A stretch of 64,000 bases of DNA from Plasmodiophora brassicae. Its lineage: Eukaryota. Location: positions 310,001-374,000 of the forward strand of contig CP145418.1 in assembly GCA_036867785.1 (NCBI GenBank). Direction: 5' to 3'. The notes beneath the pieces were generated by a model. The model made no database searches, had not been told where the DNA came from, and was given only the letters and a program-made list of their open reading frames with translations. Each line of letters starts with the position of its first letter. Position 1 is the first letter of the stretch. Shown here in pieces: positions 1 through 47,143 of the stretch. Both the position numbers and the translations under genes were made by a program.

Positions 1-236
1 TCCAATGGCAGCAACGGTGATTGGTGAACGGTGTGTTCGGCGATTTCTAAATCGAGCAACTGCGGCCAGCCCAGAATTAGCGTCCGCTTGGACCCGCTCT
101 CCAGCTCGGCCCGAATTGGTCAATGCCGGCGCTTTCGCCCATGTGCATGGCAGCTATGCCTGGCAGGACCGGCCAATGCGCAGTCGCTATCTGGTTTATG
201 AAAGGAGCGGAAAGGTTGATGGCTAATCGGATGCGG

Positions 237-2372
237 TTAGAAATCAATGACGGACGGGCGCCCGGATGCGACTTCGACCGCCAGCGATGGGCCGGCGACC
301 AGCTGGGTGGTGGGGGCAGGGCGTTTGTACTTGCGCACCGCGAGCAGAACGGCGACGCCGCCGAAGACCAGCAAGACAAAGAAGATCCAGGGCAGAAGCG
401 ACACGACGACCTTGATCGGGTTGACAGGAACCAGAGGTGGTGGCGGTCCCCGCGTTCCAGGCTCGCGCTTGAGCGTCTGCTTGATTGTACGGCCCATGGC
501 AGCAGCACCAAGGGCGCCACCAACACCGAGCGCGGCGGTCGCCAATCCTGCTGCCTTCATCGGCGATACCGCTTTACCGCCCTGAACAGGGGCCGGCATC
601 GGCGCCGATGCGGAGGAACCGCGACCGAACGCGAACATTGACGTCAGGAGGCCAATGGCGCCGGTCGCAAGGACACCAGTACCAGCGTATGCCGCCTTGC
701 GCGTTAACGACGTTGCCCCGGCGAGTTCCTTCTTCGTCGCGTTCAGGCGACCCGCCAGGTCATCCCTCATATCGCGGAGGCGTCGATTTTCGTTAGATCG
801 GCCATTCAAATTCTTCGTCGCGCTGTTCAGTTGATCGCTCAGTTCCCCGGTTTCCTTCTCGAGCATAACGACGCGCGTATTCGCCTCGGCCAGCTCTTTC
901 GTCAGGTTGTTTGCCTTCACCTCCAGTTCTTCCCTCGCCTTACAAGTATTGGTCAGGTCGTTCTCCTTGGTGCGCAGGCCACGGTTCAAAGTCTCGATCA
1001 TTTGCGTTTGCTGACCATTCGCCGTGCGGGCGTCCTCCAGGTCCTTCTCAATAGTCTCGAGCGAACTCTTCAGCTCGGCGATCTCCTCCTGAAGGCGGTG
1101 TTTGTCACTGCGAAAGGTGTCCAACTCCTTCTCGGCCGTGTCAAGGCGACCTTTCAGTACCTTGACAGTACCGTCGCGCTTCTTGACAAGGGCCTCCGAC
1201 TCGCGCAGCTTGTTGCTCAGTTCCTTATTCGTCTCTTCCAGCGATGCAATCATTTGCGAGTTCCCGTTGTTGGTAGCGCGGCATTTGCCCAGTTGCTCGT
1301 TGACGTCAGCCAGCTGTTTCTGCAGCGATTCACTCGTTTCCCGAAGGTGCTGGGATTCCGAGTGGCTCTCGTTCAGGCTGTGCATTGTGTCCGCCAGACG
1401 AAGTTCCAGTTGTTCCAGTCCCTTCGTCAGGTTGTGCTTTTCTCCCATCAGCTGCGAAATCGTTTGGCCGTAGCCGGCGCTCGCAGCGCACGTCGCGGTC
1501 AGATTGGATTCGGTGCTTTTGAGTCGACCTTTGAGGACGGAATTCGACTGCCGAAGGCGCACGTTCTCCTCACGACAGGTGCTCAGCTCACCTGTCACCT
1601 TTTTCAGGTCATCAGTAGACGTTTCGTGGGTATACCTCAACTTATGCAGCTCGGCATCCAACGTGGCTTTCGTCACTTCCAACGACAATATCTCTTCTGC
1701 TTGGACGTGGATCTGATGCTGGGCCGCCGTCAGCTGCTTCGTGAGACTTGCAAGCTCCTGTTGGTGGTTATTCGACGCCCTCGCGTGTTCGTCTCGCACA
1801 GACTGGAGGCTGTTCTCAAGTTCTTCAACTTCCTCCTGTTTCATATCGACCTGTTGTTCGAGGTTCGTGACGGATGCCTGGGAATCGCTGAGTTTCGTCT
1901 TCGTCTCCTAGGCGGGGTTCACGTCAGAACGGGGGGCAACCCCAGATTGCTGGTCGCTGCAACGTATACGGCTCACCTGGAATTCGGAGCGCGTTGCTTT
2001 GAGCTCCTGCCGAAGCTCGACCAGTTCCCTATCCTTCGTGGCCAGAGCATCGGCCTGTTCCTGGAGCGAAGACGATGCTGTCTCGAGTTCCCGCCGAACA
2101 TCCTGCAGCTCTCGGTCCTTCACCTCCAGTTGCGCCCGGAACGAGGACGATGCTGCCTCGAGTTGATGCCGAGCATCTTGGAGCTCTCGTTCCTTCTTCT
2201 CCAATAGCCCCCGAATCTGATTCAGCTGGGACTCTCGCGCTGTCTCCGTACTTGGGTGAGCATGCTTCTTCTTATTGGTCCTGCCGCTCGCAGAAGAGAC
2301 ATTCAGGCCGCAAGCGACGATGATCGCGACGAACATGATCATCGGGACGGGCCGGTGGCGTCCTGCCGACAT
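237..2372 (-). CDS. Coiled-coil/glycine-zipper membrane protein, array copy 1 (2 exons: 2372-1977, 1907-237; ~688 aa)
   Basis: Signal-like MIMFVAIIVACGLNVSSA. A GTGAGC...CTAG intron at 1976-1908 joins the two ORFs in frame. Long heptad region, GTGVLATGAIG and KAAGLATAALGVGGALGAAAM zippers, LLPW TM helix, C-terminus GRPSVIDF. Confidence 0.85.
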
Positions 2373-2512
2373 GGTTTTCCAAATGACGAGACGACCACCG
2401 GCACGATCCAGATTTAGGAGCAGCGGCGCGCCCTGTGACCCATGTCCTGATTTAGAATCGCAGGTAATCGCACGTATAGGTGCTACTCTGGTTGGTACGA
2501 CTTTCCGAGTGT

Positions 2513-3670
2513 TTAATACATGATGTCAGATGGGCGTCGAGCAGCGGCAGTAACGGCCGATGCCAGATCAGGCGGCGACATCGCCTGCCTAGAACGGGAT
2601 TTCTCGCTGGCGCGCAGGGCGACCACGACGCCAACGCCAACAAGCGCGACCAGGACGAACAGAGCCCATGGGAGAACGCTGACAATCCAGTGTGCGTCCC
2701 GAGAATCTTGCCTGGCGTTTGGTTTCGGGACACCGGCGCCCGCTGGAACCACCTTCGCCCTCGTCAGTTTGTGCATCGCGGCAGCTCCCACACCTGCGCC
2801 GACGGCAACGCCGGCCGTTGCCCATCCCGCTGTCTCTATCAGCGACGAGCCGGCCGATTCGGGCGTCTTCCCGGCACCCGACGCGAGCATCTTCACTTTA
2901 AGGACGCCCAGGGCGACAGCAACAGCAGTCGTTCCTAAGAGCTTTCTTGTCCACGACCGGTTATCAGCGTCCGCCTTCGACACCTTCTGCTTCAGCTTGT
3001 CCTGTTGCTGCCTGGCGGCACTGAGCTGGGCCGACAGGTTCGCTATAACGGCGCTGGCTCGACCGTCTGTATCATTCAAGGTCGATTCCAGAAGCGCGAT
3101 CGTGGCCAGGTCTCTCAGACGGGTTTTCAGCATTATTTGGAATTGCTCGTGGGCTTTGCGGAGCCGGACCTGCTGGCGCATGGCTCGGTACGCAGCCTTC
3201 TCGATCGACTCGTCGCGTTCTGTGGGTAAACCCGGTTCGCGCCCGGATATCCGGTTGTCCGTCTCCTGCTTCAGAGTCGAAACCTCGTCAAGCAACGCCT
3301 TGATGCGACGCTCACTCGTCGACACGTTCGACTGCAGCTGCACAATGGTCGCCTCCTTTTCATCCATGTCGCGCTCCAGGCGGGCGACCGTCGCTCGCAG
3401 TTGGTGGCACAGGTCGACAGCGTCCCGCACTCCATCATCTCGCTCGCGTACAACTCTGAGAAGTTCGTTCAACCTCGAACGCATCTCGTGGACGTGGACC
3501 CAGGTATAGGCGGATTCGCCCGACAGGGACTTGATCGCGTCCTGGATCATACGCAGGATGTCAGGCGGCGACTCGTCACTACTATTGCTACTAGACGCCA
3601 CGCTGTCCAGGCCAAACGACACCGCCAACAGCAGCGCGAGCACCAGGTGGTGATGACGGACAGACATCAT
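2513..3670 (-). CDS. Coiled-coil/glycine-zipper membrane protein, array copy 2 (~385 aa)
   Basis: ATG 3670, signal LVLALLLAVSFGLDSVAS, coiled coil, RSW motif, AGWATAGVAVGAGVGAAAM, VLPW TM, C-terminus RRPSDIMY. Confidence 0.88.
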   Translation of the reverse strand: MMSVRHHHLVLALLLAVSFGLDSVASSSNSSDESPPDILRMIQDAIKSLSGESAYTWVHVHEMRSRLNELLRVVRERDDGVRDAVDLCHQLRATVARLERDMDEKEATIVQLQSNVSTSERRIKALLDEVSTLKQETDNRISGREPGLPTERDESIEKAAYRAMRQQVRLRKAHEQFQIMLKTRLRDLATIALLESTLNDTDGRASAVIANLSAQLSAARQQQDKLKQKVSKADADNRSWTRKLLGTTAVAVALGVLKVKMLASGAGKTPESAGSSLIETAGWATAGVAVGAGVGAAAMHKLTRAKVVPAGAGVPKPNARQDSRDAHWIVSVLPWALFVLVALVGVGVVVALRASEKSRSRQAMSPPDLASAVTAAARRPSDIMY

Positions 3671-3900
3671 GGCACCGACGCGACTGGGCCTGGGCCTCCG
3701 GCCAGTGTGAGCAGAAGACCGCAATCTCGACTGCTCCGCCAGATTTGCCGCCCGCCGCAGTTTCGGGCTGCCCGAGATTCAGATCTGCGCGACTCTGTCG
3801 TATGTGGAACAACGTACGCCCCACAGTGCATCCTACGTATAGGGCAACATGCAATACATTGACAAGTGGGTTGTCGTCAAATCGCGTGACAGAACGGTTG

Positions 3901-4821
3901 TTAGTACTCGATGACGGATGGGCGCTGCGTCGCGGCGACGATGTCCGGTGTCGCGCTCGACGCCAACTTGGCAGCGTCTGTCCGCGCTTTCATGCGCATG
4001 GCGATCACGATGGCAACGCCGGCACCGAGGACAAGGACGAGAAGGACCCATGGCAGGACGTTGGCGACCGACCTTGTAGTGGCCTGCGGGCTTGGCTTGG
4101 CCGTACCGTCGTCCGCCGGGACGTCCATGTGATCATTCTGCTTCGTCTTTGCGATCCTGTGCATTGCGGCGGCTCCAATTCCTCCGCCGACTACCAGGCC
4201 TGCTGCCGTTGCCAACCCGGCTGCCTTCATCATCGACGACGTTTCCTTCGGATGTTCACCCTTCTTCGGAACGGGTGCAAGCATCGGCGCTAGTTTGGAG
4301 ATGCCCAGACCCGCAATAAGGCCCATAGTAGCACCCCTGGTCGCCGATGCCCATGATCGCTGCGAATCGTTCAACTTCTGTTGCGTATCGCGATTAAGAT
4401 CCGTCATCCGGACGATCTCGTCACGAGCGCCTTGCAGTTCCTGGCGGGCATTAGCGATCGTGCGCACCAGATCCAGATTCCGACGCTCTTTGGTGGCAAC
4501 ATCCAGTTTCAGGCCATCGATGGTCGCTGTGTCGTTCCGTCGAATGCTTTCTAGGGATTGGATTCGTTCCCGGGCATCGCGCATCTGGCGTTTGAGATCA
4601 ACTGCATCCTCTTCTGCCTTGCTCTGGTGTTTCGCCCCGGCCTCGAGTTCGCGGATCCTGTCATTACTCTGCTTGAGTTCAGCGCGCAGACGTTGGATCG
4701 TCTGTTTCCTTTTCTTCCCGTTCGAATCTCCCTTGGCGCCCGTGACGCTCTCCAGGCAGACGGCCAACGCAATCAGCAAACACAACGTGCTCGACAAACG
4801 GCAGCTACCGAACGCCGACAT
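3901..4821 (-). CDS. Coiled-coil/glycine-zipper membrane protein, array copy 3 (~306 aa)
   Basis: ATG 4821, signal LCLLIALAVCLESVTG, RSW, GATMGLIAGLG, KAAGLATAAGLVVGGGIGAAAM, VLPW TM, C-terminus QRPSVIEY. Confidence 0.88.
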   Translation of the reverse strand: MSAFGSCRLSSTLCLLIALAVCLESVTGAKGDSNGKKRKQTIQRLRAELKQSNDRIRELEAGAKHQSKAEEDAVDLKRQMRDARERIQSLESIRRNDTATIDGLKLDVATKERRNLDLVRTIANARQELQGARDEIVRMTDLNRDTQQKLNDSQRSWASATRGATMGLIAGLGISKLAPMLAPVPKKGEHPKETSSMMKAAGLATAAGLVVGGGIGAAAMHRIAKTKQNDHMDVPADDGTAKPSPQATTRSVANVLPWVLLVLVLGAGVAIVIAMRMKARTDAAKLASSATPDIVAATQRPSVIEY

Positions 4822-5004
4822 CGATTCAAATGTGACCGCGATGGCACCGATTCGCACCTGAAGAACGCTGCGGCCGGGACCCGCACGAAGCAGTCGACAG
4901 ACCCCTATTTAGAATCGCGCTGTGGCCCGATTTAGACGAAGGGCATACCACGACGCCTTGTTCGTACGACATAGCCGGCATGGGGTGACACGCGTCCCAG
5001 TGGT

Positions 5005-6012
5005 TTAGTAATTGATGTGAGATGGGCGCCGAGCAGCGACTTCAGCGGCCGAAAGCCGTCCAGACCGAAACATCCAGTTGCTGGCGCGTGCCCTCGCTTT
5101 CAGACGCCGCGTGACAGCAACAGCAGCGCCGGCTACGACGACCAGGGCGAGTAGCACCCATGGAAGAATGACAGCAACCCGGCTCGTGGCCGACGGCGAG
5201 TCGCGCTTGGCACCACGTTTGGGAATGTTGTCGTCGACGTGCGCAATTCCGTTCCTGCCCGCCTTCGCCAGACGTTGCACCGCCAATGCTCCGATTCCAC
5301 CACCGATCGCAAGACTGGCCGTTGTCTTCGTCAGCGACGCTAGGATGCCCTCTGCCTTTTCCGGCACCGGATCGGGGGTCGGTTTCGGGCGGGGGACGCC
5401 CGCGCTGGTGGCAACGGCACCGACAACGGCACCGGCAACGACACCGGTCATAAGTTTCCACACGTCCGTTCTGCCCTGTCTGCGTTTCAGCTGGGTGCGC
5501 AGGGCCGCCTCGGTCGCTTTGGACCGATTGCTGTTGGATTCCAGGGCTGATTCCAGACTGGCAATCATCAGCGACTTGCCCGTTTCGCTGTCCACCAGGT
5601 CGTCGATTCGTTTCTTGGCGGTGGCGAGTTCGCCCCCTAATTGTTTGTACTTAGCCGCAGTGCCTTGCTCCGCTGTGATGTTCGACTGAAGTCGAACAAT
5701 CTCGGCGTCCTTGTCGTTCACGTCCCGTCGAAGCTGCTCGATCTCCTGCATTCTTTCGTCACCGTCGCGGTGCAGGCCGGTGACCTCCTGTCCCAATTGC
5801 TCGACAACGTCGGCAAGGGACTCCAACAAGGGTAGACCTGCAGACGCTGGAACGTTCTCCTTTTGAAGTACGGCGCGCAGGCCCTCGATCCGGCTCCGAA
5901 TCGAACGGAACGTCCCCTCGGTAGACGCCACGCCCTCCAGGCCGGCGAATACCACCGCGAACAGCAGAAGCAATGCCATGCTCGGCAGGCGGCGCCGATC
6001 GATCGGCGTCAT
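5005..6012 (-). CDS. Coiled-coil/glycine-zipper membrane protein, array copy 4 (335 aa)
   Basis: Signal MALLLLFAVVFAGLEGVAS, coiled coil, GVVAGAVVG, SLAIGGGIGALAV, ILPW TM, C-terminus RRPSHINY. Confidence 0.88.
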   Translation of the reverse strand: MTPIDRRRLPSMALLLLFAVVFAGLEGVASTEGTFRSIRSRIEGLRAVLQKENVPASAGLPLLESLADVVEQLGQEVTGLHRDGDERMQEIEQLRRDVNDKDAEIVRLQSNITAEQGTAAKYKQLGGELATAKKRIDDLVDSETGKSLMIASLESALESNSNRSKATEAALRTQLKRRQGRTDVWKLMTGVVAGAVVGAVATSAGVPRPKPTPDPVPEKAEGILASLTKTTASLAIGGGIGALAVQRLAKAGRNGIAHVDDNIPKRGAKRDSPSATSRVAVILPWVLLALVVVAGAAVAVTRRLKARARASNWMFRSGRLSAAEVAARRPSHINY

Positions 6013-6585
6013 CGAAACCTTGCCCTTGTAGGTTACCTACCAGGTCTGCCCAAGCCAGCGTCCCCGGCCGCGGTCTGCGCACGCTGCGCCAATCGCGGCA
6101 ACCCACGGGGTGCTGCTGCACTGCTGCGCCACGGACTTCACGGGCAGCTGCCGCGCTAAATATAGGGCGGCATTGTGCACATGCAGACGCCCAACAGGCA
6201 TGCCTATCGGTAGTGGGGCGCCCGCCTTGCAGGGTACCGATGGGCCGGGTGCTGCTGGCATGCGGGAAGGTTCGCGCGACGGACGGCAAGTACTTCCTGA
6301 CGGTATCAGGCCCCCTCGGCCGGAGGGGCAGAGACCTCCCGGCCTACCTGGTAGTTCCCCTATCAGCGTCCCGACCAGGAGCCGCAGACAAGAGAAGGCT
6401 TTGCGCGATCGGGGCGGGTCACGCGTCGTACTGTAAAGTACTCCAAAGACCTCAAGCCCTGGCAGCGCCGAAGCGGATTCAGTCGAGGTATCCCGAACCG
6501 CAGGCCGGTTCCTACATGTACACGCGAGAGCTTGCTCGAACAAGCACCGGTGGTACTTTGATGGCGAACAGCACGCATTGGACGT

Positions 6586-7962
6586 TTAATATTCGATGGC
6601 CGACGGGCGACGTGCAGCGAGGACGATGGCCGGTGCCGTACCCGACGATGATGTCTTGTCGGCGTTGGCTTTCGTTTTCGCGCGCAAGGCGACGGTGGTC
6701 GCGACGCCCGCGAGAACGACGAGGACCAGCAGAACGAACGGGAGCACATTACCGATCCAGCTTGCCGTCTGTGGGCTCCGCTTGCTACTCGCTTCTGGAA
6801 CACCACCGGATGAAGGAATCACGCCACCCTTCTTCGCGATCGTCCGGTGCACCGCCAGCGCTCCCATTCCACCACCGATCGCCAGGCTTGCCGTCACCAG
6901 CCCGATCGTTTTCTTGCTCGGCGTAGCGTCGTTGGACGACCCCTCCACCTTCTTCCCACTTCCTGGAATGGTCGGCGTTGACATCAGCTTGGAGACGCCG
7001 AGACCAGCAACCAGGGCGCCACCCACGGCCCCCTTGATCGTCGGCACCCACGACCGTTTCGTATCGTTCAGTGCACGCCGCGTCTCGGCGTTCGATTCCT
7101 GCAGCGCCCGAAACTGACCCGCAACCAAATCAGCCGCATGACGGGTGTCACTCAGCCGCTGATTAGCCGTATCAAGCTTGGCTGACAGGTCCGCGATCGT
7201 TGTCCTGGCTTCGCCGTCCCTGTCAGCCATGTCCGATCGCAGGTTTGTGATTGTCGCTGCATCATTCCGTCGTAGGCCCTCTAGGGATTGGATCTGTGCC
7301 CTGAGGTCGCTGGCAATACACTCTCCCTGCTTGATCACGGCAGCGTCGTTCTGGGCCTGCGCCTCCAGCTGTGTGATCCTCGCCGTCTGGTTGGCAACTG
7401 TGGCCTTTCCCTCCGCCTTCAAGTTCGACATGTCGGTACGCAAACCGTCGATGGAGCGGTCTCTCTCCGCCACTTGCGACTGAAGCCGCCCAGTCTCGCC
7501 TTCGTACACTTGGACCTGGCCGCGCAACTCTGCGACCAATGTTTCCAGCTCGGTGATCTTGGCCTTGTTCTCCTGTTTCAGCGTCGTCAGGTTTGCGATT
7601 ACCTGGTCCTTTGCCGTCACATCCGCCAAGAGCTGGTTGATCGTCTGCTCTTGCGCATCGATGTCGCCCGGCATGCGCAACGTCTCCGATTCGTGGTCGG
7701 CATGGAGCTTCAAAACCGCTTCATCTAACGGCTTCGTTCCATCCTCCAGATTCCGGGCGTCCGATTGGAGTGCCTCCAGTTCGGCGCGGAACGCGTCGGC
7801 CCGGTCCCAGCTCGCATTGCTCGGCAGCGCCTGGATCAACCTCTGGATCTTGGCAATGAAGTGGTGCGGCGCGGCGGCAACGTCTGTCGACGCGACGCTG
7901 TCAAGAGCGGCGATGACCGCAAACAAGAAGAGCATGACGCTCGACAGACGACCCACCACCAT
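6586..7962 (-). CDS. Coiled-coil/glycine-zipper membrane protein, array copy 5 (~458 aa)
   Basis: ATG 7962, signal MLFLFAVIAALDSVAS, RSW, GAVGGALVAGLG, SLAIGGGMGALAV, VLPF TM, C-terminus RRPSAIEY. Confidence 0.88.
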   Translation of the reverse strand: MVVGRLSSVMLFLFAVIAALDSVASTDVAAAPHHFIAKIQRLIQALPSNASWDRADAFRAELEALQSDARNLEDGTKPLDEAVLKLHADHESETLRMPGDIDAQEQTINQLLADVTAKDQVIANLTTLKQENKAKITELETLVAELRGQVQVYEGETGRLQSQVAERDRSIDGLRTDMSNLKAEGKATVANQTARITQLEAQAQNDAAVIKQGECIASDLRAQIQSLEGLRRNDAATITNLRSDMADRDGEARTTIADLSAKLDTANQRLSDTRHAADLVAGQFRALQESNAETRRALNDTKRSWVPTIKGAVGGALVAGLGVSKLMSTPTIPGSGKKVEGSSNDATPSKKTIGLVTASLAIGGGMGALAVHRTIAKKGGVIPSSGGVPEASSKRSPQTASWIGNVLPFVLLVLVVLAGVATTVALRAKTKANADKTSSSGTAPAIVLAARRPSAIEY

Positions 7963-8112
7963 GATCGCCCCGGCGACGTCTACCAGCAGCAGCGGTGCCT
8001 CGTGCGTTTGCCAGCGCCAACAATAGCCGTCGACCAGTGACCCGAAATAGAGCGCGCGTCCGGCGAACGCCACGCGCTGTTGAATGTATTCATACGGTCA
8101 GCTGTGGACCTT

Positions 8113-9000
8113 AGGTAGAACTCGATGGCAGAGGGACGACGGGTAGCCGCAGCAACGGCAGACGCGTGACCCGGCGACAACGTCGACGTGCCCGGCTGTA
8201 GTCTCGCTTTACGACGCAGAGCGACCGCAACAGCAGCGCCTGCGACGGTGACCAGGGCGAGCAGGACCCACGGCAGAACAACAACAGTCCAGGTCGGCGA
8301 CCTCGACCTGGATTGTTGCCGGGAGCATGATCCTTTGCGGGAACGGCGCCGACACCCTGCTTCGCCTTCGAGGAACGACTCAGCGCGGCCGCCCCCAATG
8401 CGGACCCGATATCGCAAGGCTTGCCGCTGCCAGACCAGCGAGTCGTCACCGGCGATTCGCTGATGCCTTGACTCTTCGGAATCGGGTCGCCTCGTCGTCC
8501 CCCAGGAACGTGCCGGCAGGTCAGCATTTCCGACATCCCTTTGGGCACGCATCCCCCGCGTTTCATTGTCCTTGGCGGCCACGCTCGATCGCAGGTCGAT
8601 GATTGTCGCCGTATCATTGTGTTCGCTCGGCGGAGTCGTGCCGACGGATCGTGGCTTCACGTTCTGCGATGGTTGACTGGAGTTTAGAAATCTCATTGCC
8701 CGTCTCGCATGCTTCAGCGCTGACATTTCACCGTTCAAATCGAGGTGACGTCTACCACTCCTTGACCCAAGATCTTTCCGGTGCACTTCCTGCCGCAATT
8801 GCACGATTCGATTCTCCATGGTCAGAGCGATACCGTGCGTGGTCTGTAACTCCTGACGAAGGCGTATGATGGAAACGCTTGGTGCTCAGTTCCCGGGACA
8901 ACCTCGCGATCATTACAGAAAAGGCGGGCGTCGGCTCATCTCACGCCGAGCGCCAGCACAACCAGCAGAAGCAACATGCTCAACAGACAGCCCAGAGGAC
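8113..9000 (-). pseudogene. Degraded array copy 6
   Basis: The signal-like MLLLLVVLALGVR ends in a stop at 8936. Family motifs are split over different frames (NDTATI and RSW in one, IGSALGAAAL in another). VLPW TM and RRPSAIEF are intact, but the expected stop reads TAC. Confidence 0.75.
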
Positions 9001-9555
9001 CCGCGTTCCACCAATGGAAACCGAATGCGATGGACGCCCCCCTTCCCCCTCGAAGCGGACCACAATCAAGCAGCTCTGTTTCCACCATGTCCCGATTTAG
9101 GCTCGAAGGTTCGCCTCCGCGGGCAACAGGAAGCCACTCGAGACCGATGCCCCCGGCTGCTGGGCCGACACAGAGAGTAAAACGGGTGATGTATAGTCGT
9201 GGCCCACTACTACCGGCCTGGCGCCTCCCGGCGCTGCACTCGTCGTCGTCTGCCTCCCATGCGTAACGGACGATGATCCAGCGTTCACCGGACCGGTGCG
9301 GACGTCGTACGTCGCCATCGGGCGACAGCGCATCGCGGCTGTCTCTGAAATCCCATAACCGATGGCAAGATCGTGCCAATGGATGCGACCTCCGGTTCCG
9401 CCCGCGCCCCGATGTTGCCCGAATCTACTCTACCCCGATTGCTACGTCTGATATGGCGCCGCCGGCCGACACTGACCGACTCACCACGCGTTGAGTGTCG
9501 GAATCAACACAAACGGACGATGTATTGGTATGGTCGTTTGCGCGAATGACGACGC

Positions 9556-28855: not shown

Positions 28856-30967
28856 TTGACCATGCGGCATCGTTTGTGGGTAGTTGCATCTATATGGTGT
28901 GCCGCCGTTGCGTCCAGCGGCGTCGCTGGCTATTCGTTTCGCGAGAACAGCACGTTGTTTCTGAACCATCCTGTGCAGCCTGTTCCGGGCAATGCGCTGC
29001 CGTTGTTCGCGCCTCCATTAACGAATTTCTCGTGGACTGCCTGGGTGTCCATAAGCAGTCAGGTCCGGAAAGCTTCCGGTTCACGTCCCCTGTTTAGTGC
29101 AATTCCGTTCATGACAGGCGGAGACGCCAGTCAAGGGTTGCCAACACTCTACTTCAACTCATCGTCGAACGCATTGGGTTTCTCTCTCAGCATACTGTCT
29201 GGCGCCGCACCGCGAGGCGCGTCGCCGCTGGTATTCGAAACCGATGCGATTCCGTTCGATCAGTGGGTCAAGGTTGGCCTCTCGGTCACAACCTCGACGT
29301 CGTATGCCCTCACGAAGATCGTGTTGGATTGCTACGACGGCTCCAACGTGACGACCAAATACTTCCATGACGTGTCCTGGGCGACCCTACCTCGCTACGA
29401 CCAAGGTCTTCAAATTTGGGTCGGGCCCTCCGGTTTAGTCGCGCCTGGATACATTACGGATCTGGTGCTCCACTATGGCGCATCGACGCCTCGCCTATCG
29501 ACGCTGTGGCCACCTGCGCGCCTGCTGACTCGGTCCGGGAACCTCTGTGGCGGGACGAATTACCAGGAATCCACGACTCCACTTGTCATTGCCTGTTCGG
29601 ATTCTAGCCAGGTGATCAGCAGTATCCAGTTCGCGTCATTCGGTCATCCTCAGGGAACCTTCCCGAACATCACCGTTGATCCCAGTTGCCATAATGCCAA
29701 TACGTCCGCCATTGTCTTTAGTCAGTGCGCCAATCGTCGTAAGTGTCGATTGTCCTTCCCGGATGCAAGCGTTTACACTAGCGGTTGCCCATGGGGACAG
29801 GCCCCGTTCTGGGTCTCCGTCGTCGCCGTTTGCGCTTCGCCGCCGAACAAATCGACTAGTTGGCTGTCCACAACTTCCGGGCCTCTAGTCGCTCCCTCTG
29901 TGCTACACAGGTCGTCCACGCCAGGGCGGCGTCGTTGGCCTCAGTTTACGTCTCTAACGAGGCGCACCTCCACGAATCCTCACCGAGTCACGCTCTCGCC
30001 TCGATCCCGGTACTCGAAGCGTAGATCGACGGAACTCGATAGCCCTTCTCGTCGGATATCAGCGCCGACGTCGTCCAGCCTACACGGTACGACAGGCCCA
30101 GGTTCACAGGGTCGTGGTTTGGAAGCGGCTCGCGTCACGGTGCCCTTGGGTGCGATCGCTCTGGGGATCAGCTGGGACCTACAGGTCTTCTCCAGCGCTC
30201 TGGCGTCACAGATGCTGGTCGACACGAGTCGTATCGCGAGTTGCGGGATCCTCGAATCCGTCCCGGCGGTCACGTTTTACGTCCTGCCCCCCGCAGACCC
30301 AACCCAGGCAGCAGCGCGCGCCGTCGCCGTTGCCTTCCAGCAGAACATGCAACTGGCCAACAGCACCCTCCGGAGCATCCCTCTGCTGGCGTACGCGCCC
30401 CCGCCACCGATCAACGTGACCGTAGTCGATGTCACCTTATCCAGGTGTTCGGACGGGACCTATGTCGTCGTCGACAGCGGCATCTGCCCTCCGAGTCCAC
30501 CAGCGCGTGGAGGCGCCACACCGGCGACACCGCAGGCGTCCGCCTTATCGTTAGAGACGATGGAGTTGATCGCCGGCGTATCCGTGTCCGTATTCTGTGT
30601 CCTTCTGATCACCCTCTGCGTCCGTTGCATCAATTTAAAGCTGGCAGGACGGGAGGGTGGCAACGGGAACGAGTTGCTGCCGCACCAGGTCGGTGTGGGG
30701 ACAACCCAGGAAACCTACCCAGCAACGTTCAACGAGAACGTGAACGCGTTCGCGTTACCACATCGGTCAGTGTCAACAAACGCGACCGTCGATCTCGGTA
30801 CGCTGCGAACGCTGGACGGCGAGCAGGACTCGACCCGGCGGCTTCAGGCGTTCGCCCTACCACCTCGCGTCGGGGACACGTTGGGCACGATCGACCTCAG
30901 TGATGAGAAGGACAATAATGAAGTGATTTATTCCGACCGACACCGGCGCGAGACGGCGGCAACGTAA
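28856..30967 (+). CDS. Type I membrane protein with SUEL/galactose-binding lectin domain; C-terminus truncated by LTR element
   Basis: Signal peptide; ISSIQFASFGHPQG...SCH...CANRRKC lectin motif; TM LIAGVSVSVFCVLLITLCV; last 20 residues are encoded by the LTR. Confidence 0.8.
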   Translation: MTMRHRLWVVASIWCAAVASSGVAGYSFRENSTLFLNHPVQPVPGNALPLFAPPLTNFSWTAWVSISSQVRKASGSRPLFSAIPFMTGGDASQGLPTLYFNSSSNALGFSLSILSGAAPRGASPLVFETDAIPFDQWVKVGLSVTTSTSYALTKIVLDCYDGSNVTTKYFHDVSWATLPRYDQGLQIWVGPSGLVAPGYITDLVLHYGASTPRLSTLWPPARLLTRSGNLCGGTNYQESTTPLVIACSDSSQVISSIQFASFGHPQGTFPNITVDPSCHNANTSAIVFSQCANRRKCRLSFPDASVYTSGCPWGQAPFWVSVVAVCASPPNKSTSWLSTTSGPLVAPSVLHRSSTPGRRRWPQFTSLTRRTSTNPHRVTLSPRSRYSKRRSTELDSPSRRISAPTSSSLHGTTGPGSQGRGLEAARVTVPLGAIALGISWDLQVFSSALASQMLVDTSRIASCGILESVPAVTFYVLPPADPTQAAARAVAVAFQQNMQLANSTLRSIPLLAYAPPPPINVTVVDVTLSRCSDGTYVVVDSGICPPSPPARGGATPATPQASALSLETMELIAGVSVSVFCVLLITLCVRCINLKLAGREGGNGNELLPHQVGVGTTQETYPATFNENVNAFALPHRSVSTNATVDLGTLRTLDGEQDSTRRLQAFALPPRVGDTLGTIDLSDEKDNNEVIYSDRHRRETAAT

Positions 30968-31853
30968 CGCTACGTAACAGGGGCTTGCCAAGCCGTTACC
31001 GACAACTGCGTCAGTGGCGGGGCCTCTGCCGTGGACGTTACGCTGTCGCGCACAGTCACGGCGTCACCGTGTGCCGGTGGTACGACATGGTCCTTGACAC
31101 GCCCCCTCCAACGGCACGCGGTTGCATGCGGAAGACGGTCGAACGGACGTGTCCCGGCTCGACCGTTGGCTCTGGATCATGAACAACACGGCCTTGCACG
31201 TGCACATATGTCTTGGCTCGTTGACGCGGCACGAGACGGATCGTGGCGTAGCTAGAGGTGACATGGACGGCGCGATTTGCTGAGGCTGCTGTCGACGATG
31301 ACAACGCAGGGCTCCGGGTCTGGCTCAGGACGACACCGACGCTGAGCGCGCCGGCGGACAACGTTATCTTGAAAGGCGAGTGTGGCAAGCGATTGAGGCC
31401 CGTACGACTGGCGTACGCCTGGCGCTTACGTCCCGGTACTGGTTCAGGATCCCCGTAGGACGACCTGCCTTGCTGACGCGATGTGCCTGGAATCTTGCGC
31501 GTGGCGCGGACTCGGGTGGGCGTTCGTGGCGCGTTGTGCAGAAGCAGGGTCAGGGTAGAGACGCAGTGACGCGGGACTGGCACTGGATGGCACCGGCGCG
31601 CGGGGCGCCGGTGGGCTCGCCGCCTCGAAGCGCGGAGAACGCGTACGACTGTTAATCTGAGAAGGACAATAATGAAGTGATTTATTCCGACCGACACCGG
31701 CGCGAGACGGCGGCAACGTAACGCTACGTAACAGGGGCTTGCCAAGCCGTTACCGACAACTGCGTCAGTGGCGGGGCCTCTGCCGTGGACGTTACGCTGT
31801 CGCGCACAGTCACGGCGTCACCGTGTGCCGGTGGTACGACATGGTCCTTGACA
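30904..31853 (-). mobile_element. Non-autonomous miniature LTR retrotransposon (TRIM-like), 950 bp
   Basis: Identical 196-bp repeats 30904-31099 and 31658-31853, both TG...CA. TSD AGTGA at 30899-30903 and 31854-31858. Minus-strand PPT TTGGAGGGGGCG at 31100-31111 and AATAAA within the LTR. Internal 558 bp has no recognisable gag/pol. Confidence 0.93.
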
Positions 31854-31858
31854 AGTGA

Positions 31859-32246
31859 CAGGATGATGACCGCGAAGACGTTACAGCCGGCCACGGCGCA
31901 CAGCCCGTCGTTAAGGTTGACGGCCAGCCAAGACACTGACGACGCTGACTGCTCCGATTTCGAGACGGTCGCGGCAACCGGGACGCTAGCCGCCGCCGAC
32001 GGCGACGACTTCGACACGATCCGGATTGCGGTTGCAGGCCCTCGCGTCAGAGGCCAATGGCAGATGATCTCGGCGACGAACGAACCCGTGGGAACGGGGT
32101 CGGCACCCGCGCCGGATCCGTACCGCCCAGTGAAAGGCATGGCAAAGCCCGGCGCCAGGCGGAGGAAGAACGAGGCCGGCGGCGATGTCTCGACGATGAC
32201 TGCTTCCAGCGACGCTGACTGCTCCGACGTCGACGCCAATGAATAG
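31859..32246 (+). other. Displaced original 3' coding end of the lectin gene
   Basis: Removing the element and one TSD copy gives ...DLSD-RMMTAKTLQ...DVDANE* in frame. Confidence 0.85.
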
Positions 32247-33731
32247 GGACCTGCATGTCGCGGCGGACGTGTCCTGGCGAGCACGCATGGAACGACACGG
32301 AAACGTATATTAGATTCGACTATAGATATAGTAAACGGCGTGCCCAGGTTGTCATGCAGAACGCGACCTTGGTTTCGCTAGGGGCTTGACGTCGGCGAGA
32401 AGGACGCTCAGGGCGGTGTACTGCGGTAGGACGAGGTCGGACTGCAGGCGCGCTCGGCACTGAACCTCCTGGAACGCCGTCAATGACATCGGTACGCTTG
32501 CCCGCTTCGGCAGGGCGTCCGCCAGCGAACGCTTCCTGGACATTCTGGGAGTGTTGGCGCGTTTGGCAACTGGACCGGCCAGTTGGGGAGGTGTGACGGA
32601 CAGACGGCAGCGCCAGTCCTGCACGACAGACACCCTAGCTATTAATAGCCAAAGTCGCACATGACCTGAGGCCGCGTCCCAGCGACCAGGCCCGGCCGGC
32701 AGGATGCGGGACACGATGGGTAAGGTAACATAGCCATGGGAGACGCAACAAACCCTGTTATTGTATATTGGCATTGTTCATAAATGTGGAACTACGAACT
32801 GTTAGCTTTGGGATCTGGCTAACAAGTAGCCACTGCCCTGACGCGGTGGACGAGTACGAAACCGAGCGACGCGGCTATAACGCCTGACAGTGTGCTCTTC
32901 GTGCTATCTTGCACCTTGCGGTACTCGGCATACGTGCCGCTTTGGATGACGGCATCAACGCCTTATTCTTCCAGCTACTGTGCTTCTTTGTGTACTCTTT
33001 GCATAGCTCAATGGCCTCGACGTCGTCGCTCATATGCGGGAACCGCCAGATCACCCTGAAAATGCATTTGCTAATGCGAACCTCATCGTCTGTCGCCGCG
33101 ACAACCAGTGCCCATGCATCTAACCACACCCTGTAGCGGACGTCTGCCGCGTTCGACATCCGTGCCGCCTGCTCTCTCCCGACTTGGGCGTCCCGCGCTG
33201 TCGCAACGCATAGCAGCAGCGCAGCAGCAATCACGTCATACGCACCGTCGGCGTCATGGTCAACCAGGGCCAGCGGATGAATCAACTGACAATAGAAGGG
33301 AGCGCGGCTGCAACGACTAGCCAGGTGGACTACCCGCAGCGCCCCAAACGCTGGCGAGAGCCCCTAATCCCCGTTTTAGGAATTCCCGGATCACGGCCCG
33401 AGCGTGGTATCGTCTTCTTGGGTCAACCAACGCGCGAGGCCGCCAGCCATCGACCCAGGGAAGTACTGCAGTACCGATAATACGGTTGCTGCAGGACGAC
33501 CTTCTCTGCATCGTAGCCGCACTGCGATCGATCATCATCGCGCGCATGAGCAGACGGGAGCGCCCTGCAGGTCCATGAGCATTGACAAACAGGGTCGAAA
33601 CGAGAGAACGTGTACCCTGGTAGGTGGGATGCCACCCAGGGCACATCGGAATATTCCGACAGACAGGGGTGTAGTCACGCGCTGCCAGCAAAAGTGCGCC
33701 AGTTGCGACCTGCGATCGGACGGGGTTGGCC

Positions 33732-34679
33732 ATGGATCTGAAGACGGCGCTGCTCGACTGGGCGACCAAGGCCAGCGTTGAGAATCCGCCTACCGAACGT
33801 GACCGGCCGCTGCGACGACCGGAGGAAATTGTACGTCAACACGTGTTCTGCGTGCGTTGAGAACGGTTCCGTCGTCGCTGACTGCCCTGGCAGGACAAGA
33901 AATGGTTTGACGCGATCTTCGGCGAGAAGTCTGAGGTCGAATGCATGCGCGAGCAGCTGGACGTGCTGAGGACGCCATCGGATGACCGGGAAACGCGTTT
34001 GAAAGCGTTGGAACAACTGGAGTTCCTGTGCGAGTTGACCCACAACGCGAACGATTTGACGAAACTTGGCGGTCTGGACGTCGTGTTTGATCACGCCGAG
34101 CGGGCGGATGAGGACATCCAGGTCATGTCGCTGGGCATCCTTGGCATTTGCATGCCGAATAATCCTGTATTCTGCGACGCCGTCATGGCCGACCCGTCGC
34201 GACTGGAACGTCTAGTAGAGTTGCTGGCCCAACGCGATTCGATGGCCGTCCGCGCGAAAGCGCTTTGGGCTCTGTCAAGCCTGGTCAGGAATTCTCGTCC
34301 CGCGCTGGAAGCGTTTGTCACGAAGCACGATGGCGTCCAGCGACTGCGGAACGCGCTGACCGAGACCGAGAACATGACGATGGTTCGACGGGCGATCTCG
34401 TTGCTGGGCTTCCTCGAGTCCGAGAACATGGTTGACGCCGAGTTCCAGCGCCTTCTGGGGTCTGAGCTGGTCAGACTGGACGACCTGGAATGCAGCGAAC
34501 TCATCGTCAACATTCTCCGCGATATGCACGACCGAAACGCTCGCCTGGATTCGTCCGTCATCCGTCCTGCGCTGCTTGCGGTTCGCGAGCGGGAACAGCA
34601 AGGCGTGCTCCGGGATGCCGAACGCGACCCGACCGTACTCGGTGCTGTAGACCATCTGCTGGATGCGCTACCCCAGTAG
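33732..34679 (+). CDS. Hsp70 nucleotide exchange factor Fes1/HspBP1 (intron ~33831-33893)
   Basis: MDLKTALLDWATK, KWFDAIFG, ALEQLEFLCELTHNANDLTKLGGL, NNPVFC, KALWALSSLVRN. Confidence 0.85.
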
Positions 34680-35183
34680 CCATTAAACTGTCGTCACTGG
34701 TACAACAACAACAATGGCCACGGCCGGCCCACCAGGGCCTAATATGGTCCGGGGATATGCCCACGCCCGGCTGTACGTGCCCATGTTGGGCACCACGTCC
34801 GCACCTTTGCCAGCGCCCCATGGCTGGCGAAGGTGTGCATGTGCCGCGAACGATACGTGCCATTGATGGCAGCCTTGGCAATCGCTGGAGTAACGCCTCA
34901 TGGCCGTTTGTATTCATGTGGCTCTAGGATTATTTATGGACCGGGCCCATTGGCCGCATCCGTCCTGCCACGTATAGTCCAGAGTGTGCAGCAGAGTACT
35001 GCGCACAAGGCCTATTGTTTTGAGCTCATACGTCCATGCGGTCGTCCGCCGGGCCGCGGGCTCTTACATTGCGGTCTGCGGAATCCGCAAGTCCGGGCTG
35101 CACCTGAGCTGAGCACAGTGCACAGTACTGTTCGGAGATGCCGCGCTGTAGGACCTGGTGGAATTCCTGTCGGACGGACGGCC

Positions 35184-36079
35184 ATGTCGCGAACGACGCA
35201 GATCGACCAAATCAAGCAAGAGGTCGAGACGAACCTCGCTCTCAGCAACCCCGAGTTTTCACAGGAACGTCAAGCCAACGTCAAATCTGCCGTGTGGGAG
35301 AAGTTCAGCGTCGTCGCACGTGAAGACGTTCCGTGGATGATCTAAAGGAGTATGAGCTGTTGCATGTGAAGCAGGTTACGAATTTAACCTCGGGATCGAG
35401 CTTCAATGCCACAATGGGACCAAGACCTTGCGTGAGCATGTATTCACAAAGCCTGCTACACAAGAGGTGGCGTTCATGTCGGTCACTCTGCACTACATCG
35501 ATGAACAGTTAGATCTTCATGATCGGACGCTCTGCGTTAAGCCGATGCCGAATCGATCTCATACGGCAACTCTTGTACTGCAGCAGTTTGATCCTTCGAC
35601 AATATGGATCGTACTTCACAGAACCAGTTCTACCAGCTGGTATCAGACTCTGCACCAAACTGCCGAGGATGGATGCCATGTCGTGACCATAACATCGCCA
35701 CTGTTGTGACATCGGTTCTTAACAATTGCTGACAACCGCTCTGCGAAAAGAAGGCGCGCGTCCGGACAAGTCTCGCTTGTCCAACATCGTAATGGCCATG
35801 TACGACGTCGAAGGAAGTAAAGGTGTCACAGACGAGGACGACAACGAGACAGGAGATCCGCCGGTTCGCTGCAGGCAGGAACTGCACGGGTACCTTCAAC
35901 TCGGTGTTAAGCTTAGTCCCGATGGGCAGCACAGTACCCCCTAGTCTTTCGAGAGTTGCCCGGCATGTACTAGCTATGCATTCCCGCGTCAAGTTCAAAG
36001 TCAGAGTATAATTTCTCTGACGCTGGCAACCTGGTGAGAAAACGCCGAATGCTGCTGAAACAGTAATGGAGAATGACGC
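35184..36079 (+). mobile_element. Degenerate hAT transposase remnant
   Basis: BED-like KSAVWEKF, FMSVTLHYID...RTLCVKPM...SHTA, dimerisation-domain LSRVARHVL; multiple stops and frameshifts. Confidence 0.75.
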
Positions 36080-36161
36080 CCCTAGCGTTCCACCCGAAAC
36101 TCACCCGAGTTTATTAATTGACTACGACGTCGTTGTTTTGCGCGAACGCAGAAACAATTAC

Positions 36162-36815
36162 GCGTCATTCTCCGTTACTGTTTCAGCAGCGATCGGCGTT
36201 TCCTCACCAGGTTGCCAGCGTCAGAGAAATTGTACTCTGACTTTGAACTTGACGCGGAAATGCATAGGACATGCCGGGCAACTCTCGAAAGAATAGGGTA
36301 CAGCTTATGGTGTCTTTGCCACCACAGTAGTATGTTGTGCTGCTCATCGGGACTAAGCCTAACACCGAGTTGAAGGTACCCGTGCAGTTCCTGCCTGCAG
36401 CGAACCGGGGGATCTCCTGTCTGGTTGTCGTCCTCGATCGTCTGTGACATCTTCACTTCCTTCGTCGTACATGGCCATTACGAGGTTGGACAAGTGAGAC
36501 TAATTGTCCGGGCGCCTCCTTTTCGCAGAGCGGTTGCCAGAAACCGGACCCGTGATCCGCAGGCGCGTCTCCAAAGCGGGTCATTAGGGACTCGAGGAGT
36601 TCTTTGGCATTCGTGATCATTTCTGGAGGACATCCGAATGCTGACAGTCGACGCTTTTGTCCGGGATCGAGTATCGCGGCTGCGACATCCAAGTTACTGA
36701 CGATGAACTTTTCCTCCAGGAAAGGGCGAAGAGTGGCTTCCAGCTGAACGATGGTACCGGAATCCTTCATCATCGTCTCGCCATCTTGAAGCTGATGTGA
36801 ACTGTAGGACAGCAC
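36162..36815 (-). mobile_element. Second hAT transposase remnant, inverted
   Basis: AAAILDP and LLWWQRHHKLYPILSRVARHVLCISASSSKSEYNFSDAG (hAT C-terminal dimerisation motif). Confidence 0.8.
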
Positions 36816-37718
36816 CCACCCGTATCCGCTACATTTCTGAACCCTACCAGATGCAGTATGCTGATGCGCAGAGAGGCCTCAGAAATTGGCGTCATGTGCG
36901 GTGTAACTGCCAGAGATGATAGGGCAACACGTTCGGTCGGTCGACAGGCGCTGAAGATAAGGCCACGCTGCCGAACGTCTCAGGGTCAGCATCGCGCGCG
37001 GCAGGCCGTGCAGAAGAACGCGACTGGGCGCCTGGTGTGCCATGGTTGTTCCAGATATTTCCCCGGCGTCATCCACTCCCAGACCGGCGCTAGCTGCGTC
37101 CTTGTCGCTCCTATTGGCCACGCCCGTTTGGGCTCGGCCGCAAGCGTACCCGTCAGCAAAGTCTGTCCACCGAACGGTCGCCTTGCGTCGCCCGCTCTGA
37201 CCAACAAACCCGAACGTCGCATCGCAATCAAATGATGAGGCACGGCCAGATATTCCGGATCGTTCGCCACAGGCCTCGGTTGATACAGGCGCCGGTCAGT
37301 GCATGCATGCCCACGATGTCACCCGTATGCGCCAGCTGATGCGGCACGGCATTGCCGGGAACATTGCAGCAGACAGGGGGCGCCACACTGTTTGCAGTTG
37401 ACGGGTGGCCACTCGCCACGGCAGTGGTACCCTCGGTTGCCCCGAACGGATTCGGCCGGATTGCGGCGCGGATTAATCGCGCCGGTGAGTCAGCGCCGCA
37501 CGCGGTGGACTGCGGGTCACGAGACGCGCGCTGTGACGTCGCCGACAGACGTGAACTGCTGGACGAGCTACAGACAAGTCCCGTAGCGCTGCCGGCCTGA
37601 AACGAACCGTCGTTTGCCAATATGTCTGCGACCGCGCGACCCCGTCAAGGTGAACGCGGCTGTTCCGTTCATCGTGTACGCCGGGGGCCTGACCTGAGCG
37701 GTTGTAGACGTCTCGAAG

Positions 37719-38243
37719 ATGGCGGTCCCTGACGCCGTCCTGTCCAAGATGCGGGACGCAGGCGCCGTGATTAGGAAGGACCCGGACGCGCTCCTGACGA
37801 ACGTGTCCGGCGTGACGTTCAGGGACCCGGCCTGGAACGCGTACGAGGCCTGGGCGAACACGGTCGACGCGTCAATCATGGTTGGGGCCGGATTCGGGCC
37901 GTCACCGCAGGTGATCGAGGCCAGGCGTCATGCGCCACCGCCCCTGACGGGCCCGATCCTGATCGAGGCGAACTCGATCCGGTCGCATTTCGCCGCGTTG
38001 CACCCGGATGACGTCGACAGCGGCGAACGCGTCGAGGTCGCTGGGCCGCTGAACGTCGCCCTGTCGTTCCAGGAGGTGCACCCGCCGAAACTGGCGATGT
38101 CGCCGATGCTGTCGACGATCGAGAACCCGTCCCAGGCCGACTACCCGTCCATCAGCCAGCTCCCTGCCGGGTTCTATATCTGCGACGTTGCCCACTTCTG
38201 GTCAAACGCTGTCGTCCAGATCGCCGTCTTCAAACAACAATAA
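37719..38243 (+). CDS. Hypothetical protein (probably last exon of a spliced gene starting upstream)
   Basis: 174-aa ORF with coding-like codon usage; no motif recognised. Confidence 0.45.
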   Translation: MAVPDAVLSKMRDAGAVIRKDPDALLTNVSGVTFRDPAWNAYEAWANTVDASIMVGAGFGPSPQVIEARRHAPPPLTGPILIEANSIRSHFAALHPDDVDSGERVEVAGPLNVALSFQEVHPPKLAMSPMLSTIENPSQADYPSISQLPAGFYICDVAHFWSNAVVQIAVFKQQ

Positions 38244-38362
38244 TGAACACGCGTCGTTGACACCTTCTTATGTTTCCACAGTACTTGTGGAGGACAGTCG
38301 CATGGGTCGGGTGCTGCCCGTCTCTTGGATCGGGTGCTTCCGACGTTCGCCTGCCAGACGTG

Positions 38363-41195: not shown

Positions 41196-41556
41196 ATGGG
41201 GCCTGTGCCGTCCCGAACCGTGCCTGTATTGCCAGTCCTGCGACAGCAGGAACGACAGCCAATCGTTTCTGACATCAAACGTTGATCGGGAAGCGTGCCC
41301 CGCCACAGCACAGGCTTGGGCGCGTTCAACGCATCGCTCTCAGATAGGTTGACATTTTAGAAATTCCCTCGTTCCGGGGTCTCAGCGTCAGGCTCTCAGG
41401 CCGACCGGGCCTTGGTTCCCTGTACTGCTCAATTGCACAGGCCAGTGGATGATGACGACAGCGCCCCGTCATCTTCGTCGACATGGGGCGCACGTTCCCA
41501 GGCTGGTCACGGCACGCGGCTGCGATGTCTGATAGACGTCCCCCGAGGATCGGGCG

Positions 41557-45090: not shown

Positions 45091-45169
45091 CTGGTCTAAA
45101 CGCGAACCGTTGCCGCCTGGTCGACACGTAAACGAGTATATATTGACACGGGCCGCGACAACGGACGGG

Positions 45170-47074: not shown

Positions 47075-47143
47075 GGTTGGCGACAAATCACATGAATGTG
47101 GTCGCCGTCCAGGGGCGGCCCACGGCATATGGGCAGCCAGCCT

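Follow-up and report, generated by a model that had tools for sequence, protein, structure and literature searches.

Seven tandem paralogues and their kin: a family of membrane-anchored coiled-coil proteins of Plasmodiophora brassicae with a possible place at the plasmodial surface

Why would an intracellular parasite keep, side by side, a row of genes whose products agree at one end and differ widely in length towards the other? The question is raised by one end of a 64,000-nucleotide stretch of the Plasmodiophora brassicae genome (assembly GCA_036867785.1, contig CP145418.1, positions 310,001 to 374,000 of the forward strand), hereafter the window, in whose coordinates all features are given. 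On its minus strand, between 237 and 12507, lie seven open reading frames (ORFs) whose products can be aligned over their last ~150 residues, so that the seven head-to-tail paralogues described in an earlier note, made from the sequence alone, are confirmed. The note had attributed them to a parasite, which P. brassicae, an intracellular parasite, is. The answer we prefer, tentatively and with somewhat less than even confidence, is that the products of these genes are surface proteins crossing the membrane once, restricted as a family to this species, in which the outer rod varies while an inner tail, constant throughout, serves for docking; their site is probably the interface between plasmodium and host.

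Six of the array copies are intact, at 688, 385, 306, 335, 458 and 980 residues, and one is decayed; the size range of 306 to 980 residues given in the note was correct. Gene models in the public protein collection exactly match five ORFs, all on the minus strand: copy 2 (P0123; 2513..3670, 385 residues), copy 3 (P0001; 3901..4821, the shortest at 306 residues), copy 4 (P0124; 5005..6012, 335 residues), copy 5 (P0122; 6586..7962, 458 residues) and copy 7 (P0125; 9556..12498, the longest at 980 residues). Copy 1 is a paralogue as proposed, but the 535-residue ORF by which it had been modelled is only part of it. An upstream ORF at 1908-2372 carries the signal peptide, and the two join in frame once a 69-nucleotide GT..AG intron, read from 1976 to 1908, is removed. 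The resulting minus-strand gene consists of exon 1 (1977..2372; signal peptide and start of the stalk), the intron (1908..1976) and exon 2 (237..1907; most of the stalk, both glycine-rich segments and the LPW transmembrane (TM) helix, ending in RPSVIDF followed by a stop), and encodes 688 residues.

The decayed member, copy 6 (about 8118..8990, minus strand), was delimited by tblastn and three-frame reading. By tblastn, four of the seven queries recognise its TM helix and tail (E 1e-5 to 8e-4) and nothing else of it. Read in three frames, a signal-peptide-like remnant stops near 8940, remnants of the stalk and an RSW motif remain, the first glycine-rich segment is gone and what is left of the second is divided over two frames; the LPW helix and an RRPSAIEF tail are intact, and the stop beyond the tail has been lost. 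An eighth paralogue, P0127 (PBTT_05843; 806 residues), lies outside the window and possesses a signal peptide and the same C-terminal module. The longest contig on record for it measures 1,307,724 bp, exactly as for the proteins of the window. Among the copies, copy 1 is the nearest to it (58% identity over the module, E 3.6e-35, BLASTP), and the array probably extends leftwards beyond window position 1. Family size is here the count obtained from protein libraries, and statements about seven intact proteins refer to the six intact array copies together with P0127. The genes are intron-poor, with 0-1 introns each; the genome paper gives a species mean of 4 introns for each gene and a mean intron size of 60 bp (PMC4471660).

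The order of parts, judged from Kyte-Doolittle peaks and motifs, is identical in all seven intact proteins, as the note had claimed. Each begins with a hydrophobic segment whose 19-residue Kyte-Doolittle peak is 1.89-2.26; basic residues precede it in six of the seven, and positions -3 and -1 are occupied by small residues; the region of the presumed cleavage site frequently reads L(D/E)(S/G)V(A/T)(S/G) by eye. Signal peptides were assigned from these hydrophobicity peaks and from reading by eye. There follows a stalk of 121-795 residues and then an (R)SW motif, which, in keeping with the "often" of the note, is found in most copies and not in all. Next comes glycine-rich segment 1, with an uncharged run of 13-24 residues, a Kyte-Doolittle peak of 1.32-1.74 and a GxxxG motif in four of seven proteins. 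A Pro/Lys-rich linker leads to glycine-rich segment 2 (consensus KxAGLATAxLAVGGGxGAAAM), in which the uncharged run measures 16-28 residues, the peak is 1.23-1.81 and GxxxG is present in 7/7. A polar linker of about 25-35 residues joins this segment to the LPW helix (LPF in copy 5), a run of 21-27 uncharged residues reaching 2.62-2.82 on the same scale, after which come a basic patch and a short tail. In copy 3, for example, the glycine-rich segments occupy residues 163-175 and 200-220 and the TM helix residues 255-275.

Conservation is concentrated in this C-terminal module. Invariant columns among all seven array copies include G, LP, G, R, A and RPS, and the six intact modules compared with copy 3 show 37-45% identity with 14 invariant columns. 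Between paralogues module identity ranges from 29 to 58%, and 19 of the 21 pairs among the seven intact proteins are found by BLASTP at E <= 1e-3 (best 3.6e-35). The tail beyond the basic patch is 27-29 residues long (38 in copy 7) and ends in RPSx(I/V)x(Y/F). When the 64 kb are translated in six frames, the slightly wider pattern RPSx[ILVM]x[YF] turns up seven times, each occurrence ending one of the seven copies and six of the seven being directly followed by a stop; the reversed-sequence control gave 0 occurrences. RPS is invariant and C-terminal in every copy, and is extended to RRPS in four of the seven intact copies and in decayed copy 6. RRxS is a consensus of basophilic kinases, and (I/V)x(Y/F) at a C-terminus is similar to hydrophobic motifs that serve there for docking or export.

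The stalks are patterned as coiled coils. Heptads cover 0.56-0.92 of each, exceeding the maximum of 50 shuffles in all seven proteins. An AlphaFold2 model of copy 3, for which the alignment consisted of the seven paralogues, predicts a single helix over residues 33-164, with a predicted local distance difference test (pLDDT) of 87 to 96 in blocks over residues 41 to 150; taking the textbook rise of 0.15 nm per residue, this helix would be ~20 nm long. The AlphaFold model of copy 7 breaks its stalk into six helices (28-75, 80-126, 132-336, 369-507, 513-653 and 664-792). Its best Foldseek matches are antiparallel coiled-coil hairpins of SMC arms, the top one, 5xg2, at E 2.3e-4 with a TM-score of 0.58 on the target and being the only match with E <= 0.001; the likeness of this model to SMC arms is that of a generic coiled coil, not of homology. 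If the proteins associate with themselves, structure prediction gives evidence neither way: three copies of copy 3 residues 30-306 scored 0.02 against a mark of 0.32.

How did stalks of such different sizes come about? The stalk of P0127 contains a tandem duplication of ~84 residues (42-51% identity, E down to 5.8e-16 in a windowed self-BLAST), copies 1 and 5 contain several internal repeats by the same method, and copy 7 gives 63 windowed self-matches against 0-3 in five shuffles. Judging from these repeats, the size differences arose through internal duplication. Between copies the stalks are weakly alike, with 9 of 18 reported BLASTP pairs reaching E <= 1e-3 and most pairs weak or below significance, against E 1e-7 to 1e-35 for module pairs, and they hold 0-7 cysteines and 1-7 NxS/T sequons each. 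Repeats in the DNA of the array comprise only short stretches at 60-90% identity, so that gene conversion has not occurred recently. The earlier suggestion that the family evolves by birth and death is supported by one decayed copy and by stalks grown by internal duplication. Its further suggestion of length-graded spacers is uncertain: stalk lengths do vary, but the model of copy 7 divides the stalk into helices of about 130-140 residues and resembles antiparallel coiled coils that are folded back.

A further part of the earlier proposal, a glycine-zipper hairpin in the membrane, is not supported. On the Hessa insertion scale, applied as a position-independent sum over 19 residues, the LPW helix scores -0.8 to -2.0, the glycine-rich segments listed score +1.9 to +4.4 and the remaining segments score higher. 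Moreover, segment 1 is too short for a membrane span in four of the seven proteins, in which it has only 13-14 uncharged residues, fewer than 18. We regard the glycine-rich segments as borderline hydrophobic and infer that the proteins are single-pass, with the segments outside the membrane and adjoining it; cooperative or post-translational insertion of these segments is possible.

The genes are transcribed. We placed the contigs of four sequencing runs from four studies on window positions 1-12700, to which they are 100% identical, with no differing letters and no indels. The runs were taken as RNA solely through contigs that skip an intron, and the depth of contigs cannot rank genes or stages. 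The whole coding region of copy 1 is present in contigs of 4/4 runs, and all four skip its 69-nucleotide intron; as this joint is canonical on the strand of the gene, spliced RNA is present in the runs and the expression of copy 1 is in sense. For copy 2, contigs extend from 2527 to the start codon in 4/4 runs. The coding sequences of copies 4 and 5 are complete in contigs of three of the four runs, the fourth falling short by 11 nucleotides (copy 4) or 4 nucleotides (copy 5), and that of copy 7 in two, the other two lacking 10 or 74 nucleotides. Copies 3 and 6 are represented, among the contigs listed, by short contigs of low depth only. Silence of the genes, which the note had named as grounds for abandoning its proposal, is thus at odds with contigs of all four runs. 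No 7- or 8-mer is common to at least 4 of the 6 upstream regions that we compared for shared promoter words.

Two further joints point in the other direction. At 2461-2526, between the start of copy 1 and the end of copy 2, contigs of three of the four runs skip 66 nucleotides and those of the fourth break at both edges. This skip is GT..AG on the plus strand only and takes from copy 2 its stop and the four codons before it. At 8820-8888, inside copy 6, contigs of one run skip 69 nucleotides at a depth of 4.7, again canonically on the plus strand only. Both match the typical intron size of the organism, and from their splice-site sequences both are probably spliced antisense RNA. Should the skip at 2461-2526 occur in sense messenger RNA, copy 2 would lose its C-terminal motif. 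Our search of the literature on P. brassicae found no account of antisense RNA.

Is the family known under another name? When a HMMER profile built on the last 160 residues was scored against all 1.84 billion cluster representatives, six proteins reached E <= 0.001 (1e-55 to 4e-24), namely five window copies and P0127, and no protein outside the family did so. This search, proposed in the note as a check, therefore brought up no characterised housekeeping protein. A word-index search with copy 3 returned the query alone, metagenome scans with P0127 and copy 5 gave no relative, and a protein atlas look-up with the module gave no usable match. Hmmscan of six modules at E <= 10 listed 13 families, of which the best, FtsX (E 0.01), lies under its cut-off; none of the 13 is a glycine-zipper or pore-former family. 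A sequence search of solved structures produced only TM-type noise (best E 0.17). In a Pfam scan of eight ORF products at E <= 0.1 the matches were of coiled-coil type and below their cut-offs, ATG16 excepted. The literature that we searched describes neither the family nor locus tags near PBTT_05843, and supplementary tables may list these genes together with their stage expression. These results support the view, also taken by the note, that the family is undescribed, in that no Pfam family (beyond coiled-coil-type matches), solved structure or paper covers it.

The exception in the Pfam scan concerns ATG16 (PF08614), which passes its cut-off in copy 1 alone (one of eight ORF products; 38.6 against 33.7 bits, over three stretches of the stalk); a second product reaches 13.8 bits and the others have no match. 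We rejected this assignment because we read the match as coiled-coil composition, and because a signal peptide and a TM helix do not suit a cytosolic autophagy protein. As a separate observation, the only tblastn match within the window and outside the array, between residues 114-221 of copy 3 and 43404-43703 in a plus-strand frame (29% identity, E 3.4e-4), falls within a PPR gene region and is probably due to chance.

Several known systems share part of this architecture. The golgins giantin, golgin-84 and CASP combine a long heptad rod, varied in length, with one TM helix at the C-terminal end and a short tail. They lack a signal peptide and glycine-rich juxtamembrane segments, both of which the present family has, and their rods are cytosolic; since all seven intact proteins start with a signal-peptide-like segment, the rod would here lie on the opposite side of the membrane. 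There is no sequence relation either (Golgin_A5, E 0.0064, 16.5 bits against a cut-off of 31.7). The Inc proteins of Chlamydia, likewise of an intracellular parasite, form a large, divergent and lineage-restricted family with paired hydrophobic segments and coiled coils presumed to face the host cytosol. They are, however, bacterial and type III secreted, and their bilobed domain has two true TM lobes and no third TM helix, whereas the paired segments studied here are marginally hydrophobic, and the strong TM helix that follows is separate from them. Class I viral fusion glycoproteins combine a signal peptide, a coiled-coil ectodomain, Gly/Ala-rich segments, one TM helix and a short tail; in these the apolar peptide comes ahead of the coiled coil and at a great distance from the TM helix, but in 7/7 of our proteins the two glycine-rich segments follow the stalk on its C-terminal side and lie 25-35 residues ahead of the TM helix. 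The search of solved structures and Foldseek with the copy 7 model gave no sequence or fold match to them.

Glycine-zipper membrane proteins (the Pfam families Gly-zipper_Omp, OmpA and YMGG, glycine zipper 2TM, and the VacA type) have similar GxxxG or small-xxx-small runs, without the context of signal peptide, rod and TM helix. Alpha-pore-forming toxins (ClyA, Hbl, Nhe) were considered and rejected, having no Pfam match to the eight ORF products (E <= 0.1) or to the six modules (E <= 10); such toxins have a soluble form without a permanent anchor, and in 7/7 proteins we find a C-terminal TM helix with a basic patch. Within P. brassicae itself, the adhesin-like effector PbALE is repeat-rich, helical, associated with lipid or membrane and reported at the plasmodial surface, but it is described as a secreted soluble protein with apolipoprotein-like and heptapeptide repeats, the word "transmembrane" being absent from that paper (PMC13738674), and it is by this description that we set it apart. 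Variant-antigen families resemble the present one in being clustered, divergent paralogues subject to birth and death (here eight loci, one decayed, with module identity of 29-58%). They differ in their variability between isolates, of which we saw none: 0 differences or indels over 12.7 kb in the contigs of four runs from four studies, a comparison in which contigs drop rare variants and the kinship of the isolates is unknown. Coiled-coil proteins anchored in the membrane at the surface of intracellular parasites are a known general kind; what is new is this family, which has no detectable relatives.

How might such proteins work? The family would have arisen by tandem gene duplication, its stalks lengthened by internal duplication. 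In a type I layout, each protein would enter the secretory pathway by means of a cleavable signal peptide, its helical stalk with the heptad pattern would come to lie outside the parasite membrane, and the LPW helix would be the sole true membrane span. The two Gly/Ala-rich segments, just outside the membrane, would most likely pack together laterally or lie half-buried in the outer leaflet, and the basic patch and tail would remain in the parasite cytosol. There the RPS and (I/V)x(Y/F) elements could form a constant "inner plug", a motif recognised by a parasite protein for docking or sorting, and the presence of the RRxS kinase consensus in four of seven intact copies and in copy 6 leads us to propose that the tail may be switched by phosphorylation at the RPS serine. 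The variable stalk would be the outer working end. Constraint is strongest in the anchor and in the last seven residues and the stalk varies, a distribution which fits a constant end docking to a conserved partner and a variable end directed outward.

The likeliest site for such a protein would be the surface of the intracellular plasmodium, with stalks reaching into the host cytoplasm. There they would form or organise the surface layer of the parasite, together with the contacts that it makes with membranes and organelles of the host. P. brassicae lives as a wall-less plasmodium that grows directly in the cytoplasm of its host. Host organelles and endomembranes are reported to collect at the plasmodial surface and to be phagocytosed by a mechanism called poorly understood (PMC13738674). 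The membrane that surrounds P. brassicae has been noted to be thicker than that of another phytomyxid (PMC10953367). Against this setting we infer that the family is a natural candidate for the plasmodial surface.

Several observations weigh against this assignment or narrow it. Species restriction is meant relative to the databases searched, whose coverage of Spongospora, Polymyxa and Maullinia was not verified; in a control search with the product of a neighbouring gene, a "Swiss Army Knife" protein (PTP-SAK), the phytomyxids named among the 120 listed of 123 matches amounted to the query species' own protein. The proteins are known here from genes and RNA contigs alone. Strand is given by the intron of copy 1 for that copy alone, since contigs cannot give it for intronless copies, and antisense RNA probably occurs within the array, as judged from the two joints that are canonical on the opposite strand only. 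The glycine-rich region is modelled by AlphaFold at pLDDT below 50 in copies 3 and 7, and most copies have a net positive charge in the loops on both sides of segment 2, by which the topology is not settled. Finally, the antiparallel likeness of the copy 7 model suggests that long copies may fold back and so be thicker rather than longer; the alternatives would be bundles of ~130-140-residue helices and rods of up to ~120 nm.

The same architecture could also serve another stage, as the coat of a zoospore, an encysting cell or a maturing resting spore, with roles in root-hair attachment, assembly of the penetration apparatus or formation of the spore wall. As the RNA is not tied to a stage, the data accord equally well with a role on zoospores or spores, and to that extent count against our preferred site. 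Extracellular coiled-coil rods are, besides, common in adhesion, and each stalk carries its 1-7 sequons. The low cysteine content (0-7 per stalk) would be unusual for proteins exposed to soil, although this is a weak argument, and on balance we consider a different stage rather unlikely. We give slightly less credence still to a location inside the parasite, in which proteins retained or sorted by the tail would use their luminal coiled coils as spacers, or to organise cargo, in the endoplasmic reticulum (ER), the nuclear envelope or secretory vesicles. Luminal coiled coils do set membrane spacing, as in CLIMP-63 and SUN proteins, and a conserved cytosolic motif at the extreme C-terminus is typical of ER-export or retrieval signals. 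Organelle housekeeping, however, should be conserved beyond one species, and we found no relative among 1.84 billion proteins; eight divergent paralogues with very different stalks are a better fit to an interface family.

That the two glycine zippers form a membrane hairpin and assemble into an oligomeric pore or permeabiliser, as the earlier note had suggested, appears to us quite improbable. Glycine zippers do occur in channel-forming proteins, and the GxxxG motifs together with the 16-28 uncharged residues of segment 2 would accord with such a role, but beyond these motifs we found no support for a pore: the insertion scores, the shortness of segment 1 in four of seven proteins, the failure of the six modules to match any glycine-zipper or pore-former Pfam family and the permanent TM anchor, unlike the state of soluble pore-forming toxins, all speak against it. 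Hardly credible, lastly, is the idea that these are fortuitous ORFs or a dying family without function. One copy has indeed decayed and copies 3 and 6 have only their short contigs among those listed, but six ORFs of 306-980 residues have been kept open, anchor and tail remain 29-58% identical whereas divergence has brought even the best DNA repeats to 60-90%, and RNA contigs come from four studies, with copy 1 spliced on its own strand.

Returning to proteins of the plasmodial surface, one may carry the argument a step further. The family might be the protein basis of an unusually thick surface layer of the plasmodium, a golgin-like outward tether invented by one lineage; this is a speculative extension, and an unlikely one. 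Rods of different sizes on the plasma membrane would then catch host endomembranes and organelles, or space them, before engulfment, the Gly/Ala-rich segments would permit lateral packing or transient insertion in apposed membranes, and a phosphorylatable tail would couple the coat to the parasite cortex.

The surroundings of the array are those of a GC-rich region (0.55-0.67 across the window) in which both strands carry genes, among them those for WD40, PPR, ankyrin, SUEL-lectin and PTP-SAK proteins. A plus-strand ORF of 284 residues (13305-14159), immediately upstream of the array, encodes a very hydrophobic product, assigned to no family, with several likely membrane spans and an acidic Ser/Glu/Asp-rich C-terminal part. 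The PTP-SAK gene (17768-19066, minus strand) encodes 2H phosphoesterase and DSP-PTPase domains. The best named relatives of its protein are fungal (41-48% identity), oomycete and rotifer, with no other phytomyxids among the matches listed, and by sequence it is a possible candidate for gene transfer. Two plus-strand ORFs with weak ankyrin-repeat matches, at 19558-21984 (808 residues) and 22793-25216 (807 residues), appear to be a tandem pair; effector roles of ankyrin proteins in P. brassicae have been discussed (PMC12503489). At 28862-30967 on the plus strand, an ORF of 701 residues contains a SUEL-type galactose/rhamnose-binding lectin domain, and the following ~10 kb (30967-41557), which is without an ATG-started ORF of at least 250 residues, probably holds intron-rich genes. 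An HSP70 gene lies at 45170-47128 on the minus strand, its product 100% identical to a P. brassicae protein, with two further HSP70s of this species among the matches. Antisense to it, a plus-strand ORF (44696-46276) matches the Pfam family NAD-GH at E 1.2e-64; NAD-GH is a well-known spurious family built from HSP70 antisense frames, and this ORF is no gene.

Effector screens in P. brassicae discard proteins with predicted TM helices, according to the genome paper (PMC4471660), and such proteins were also removed in a recent structural secretome study (PMC12503489). This practice explains how the family came to be overlooked. The disease caused by the organism, clubroot, is a major one of Brassica crops, and to our knowledge the molecular interaction of its naked plasmodium with the host cytoplasm is largely unknown. 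If the proteins described here are located on the plasmodial surface, they would be the first candidate structural components of that interface and would serve as markers for microscopy and for purification of plasmodia, and their conserved tail motif would offer a handle for finding the partner on the parasite side.

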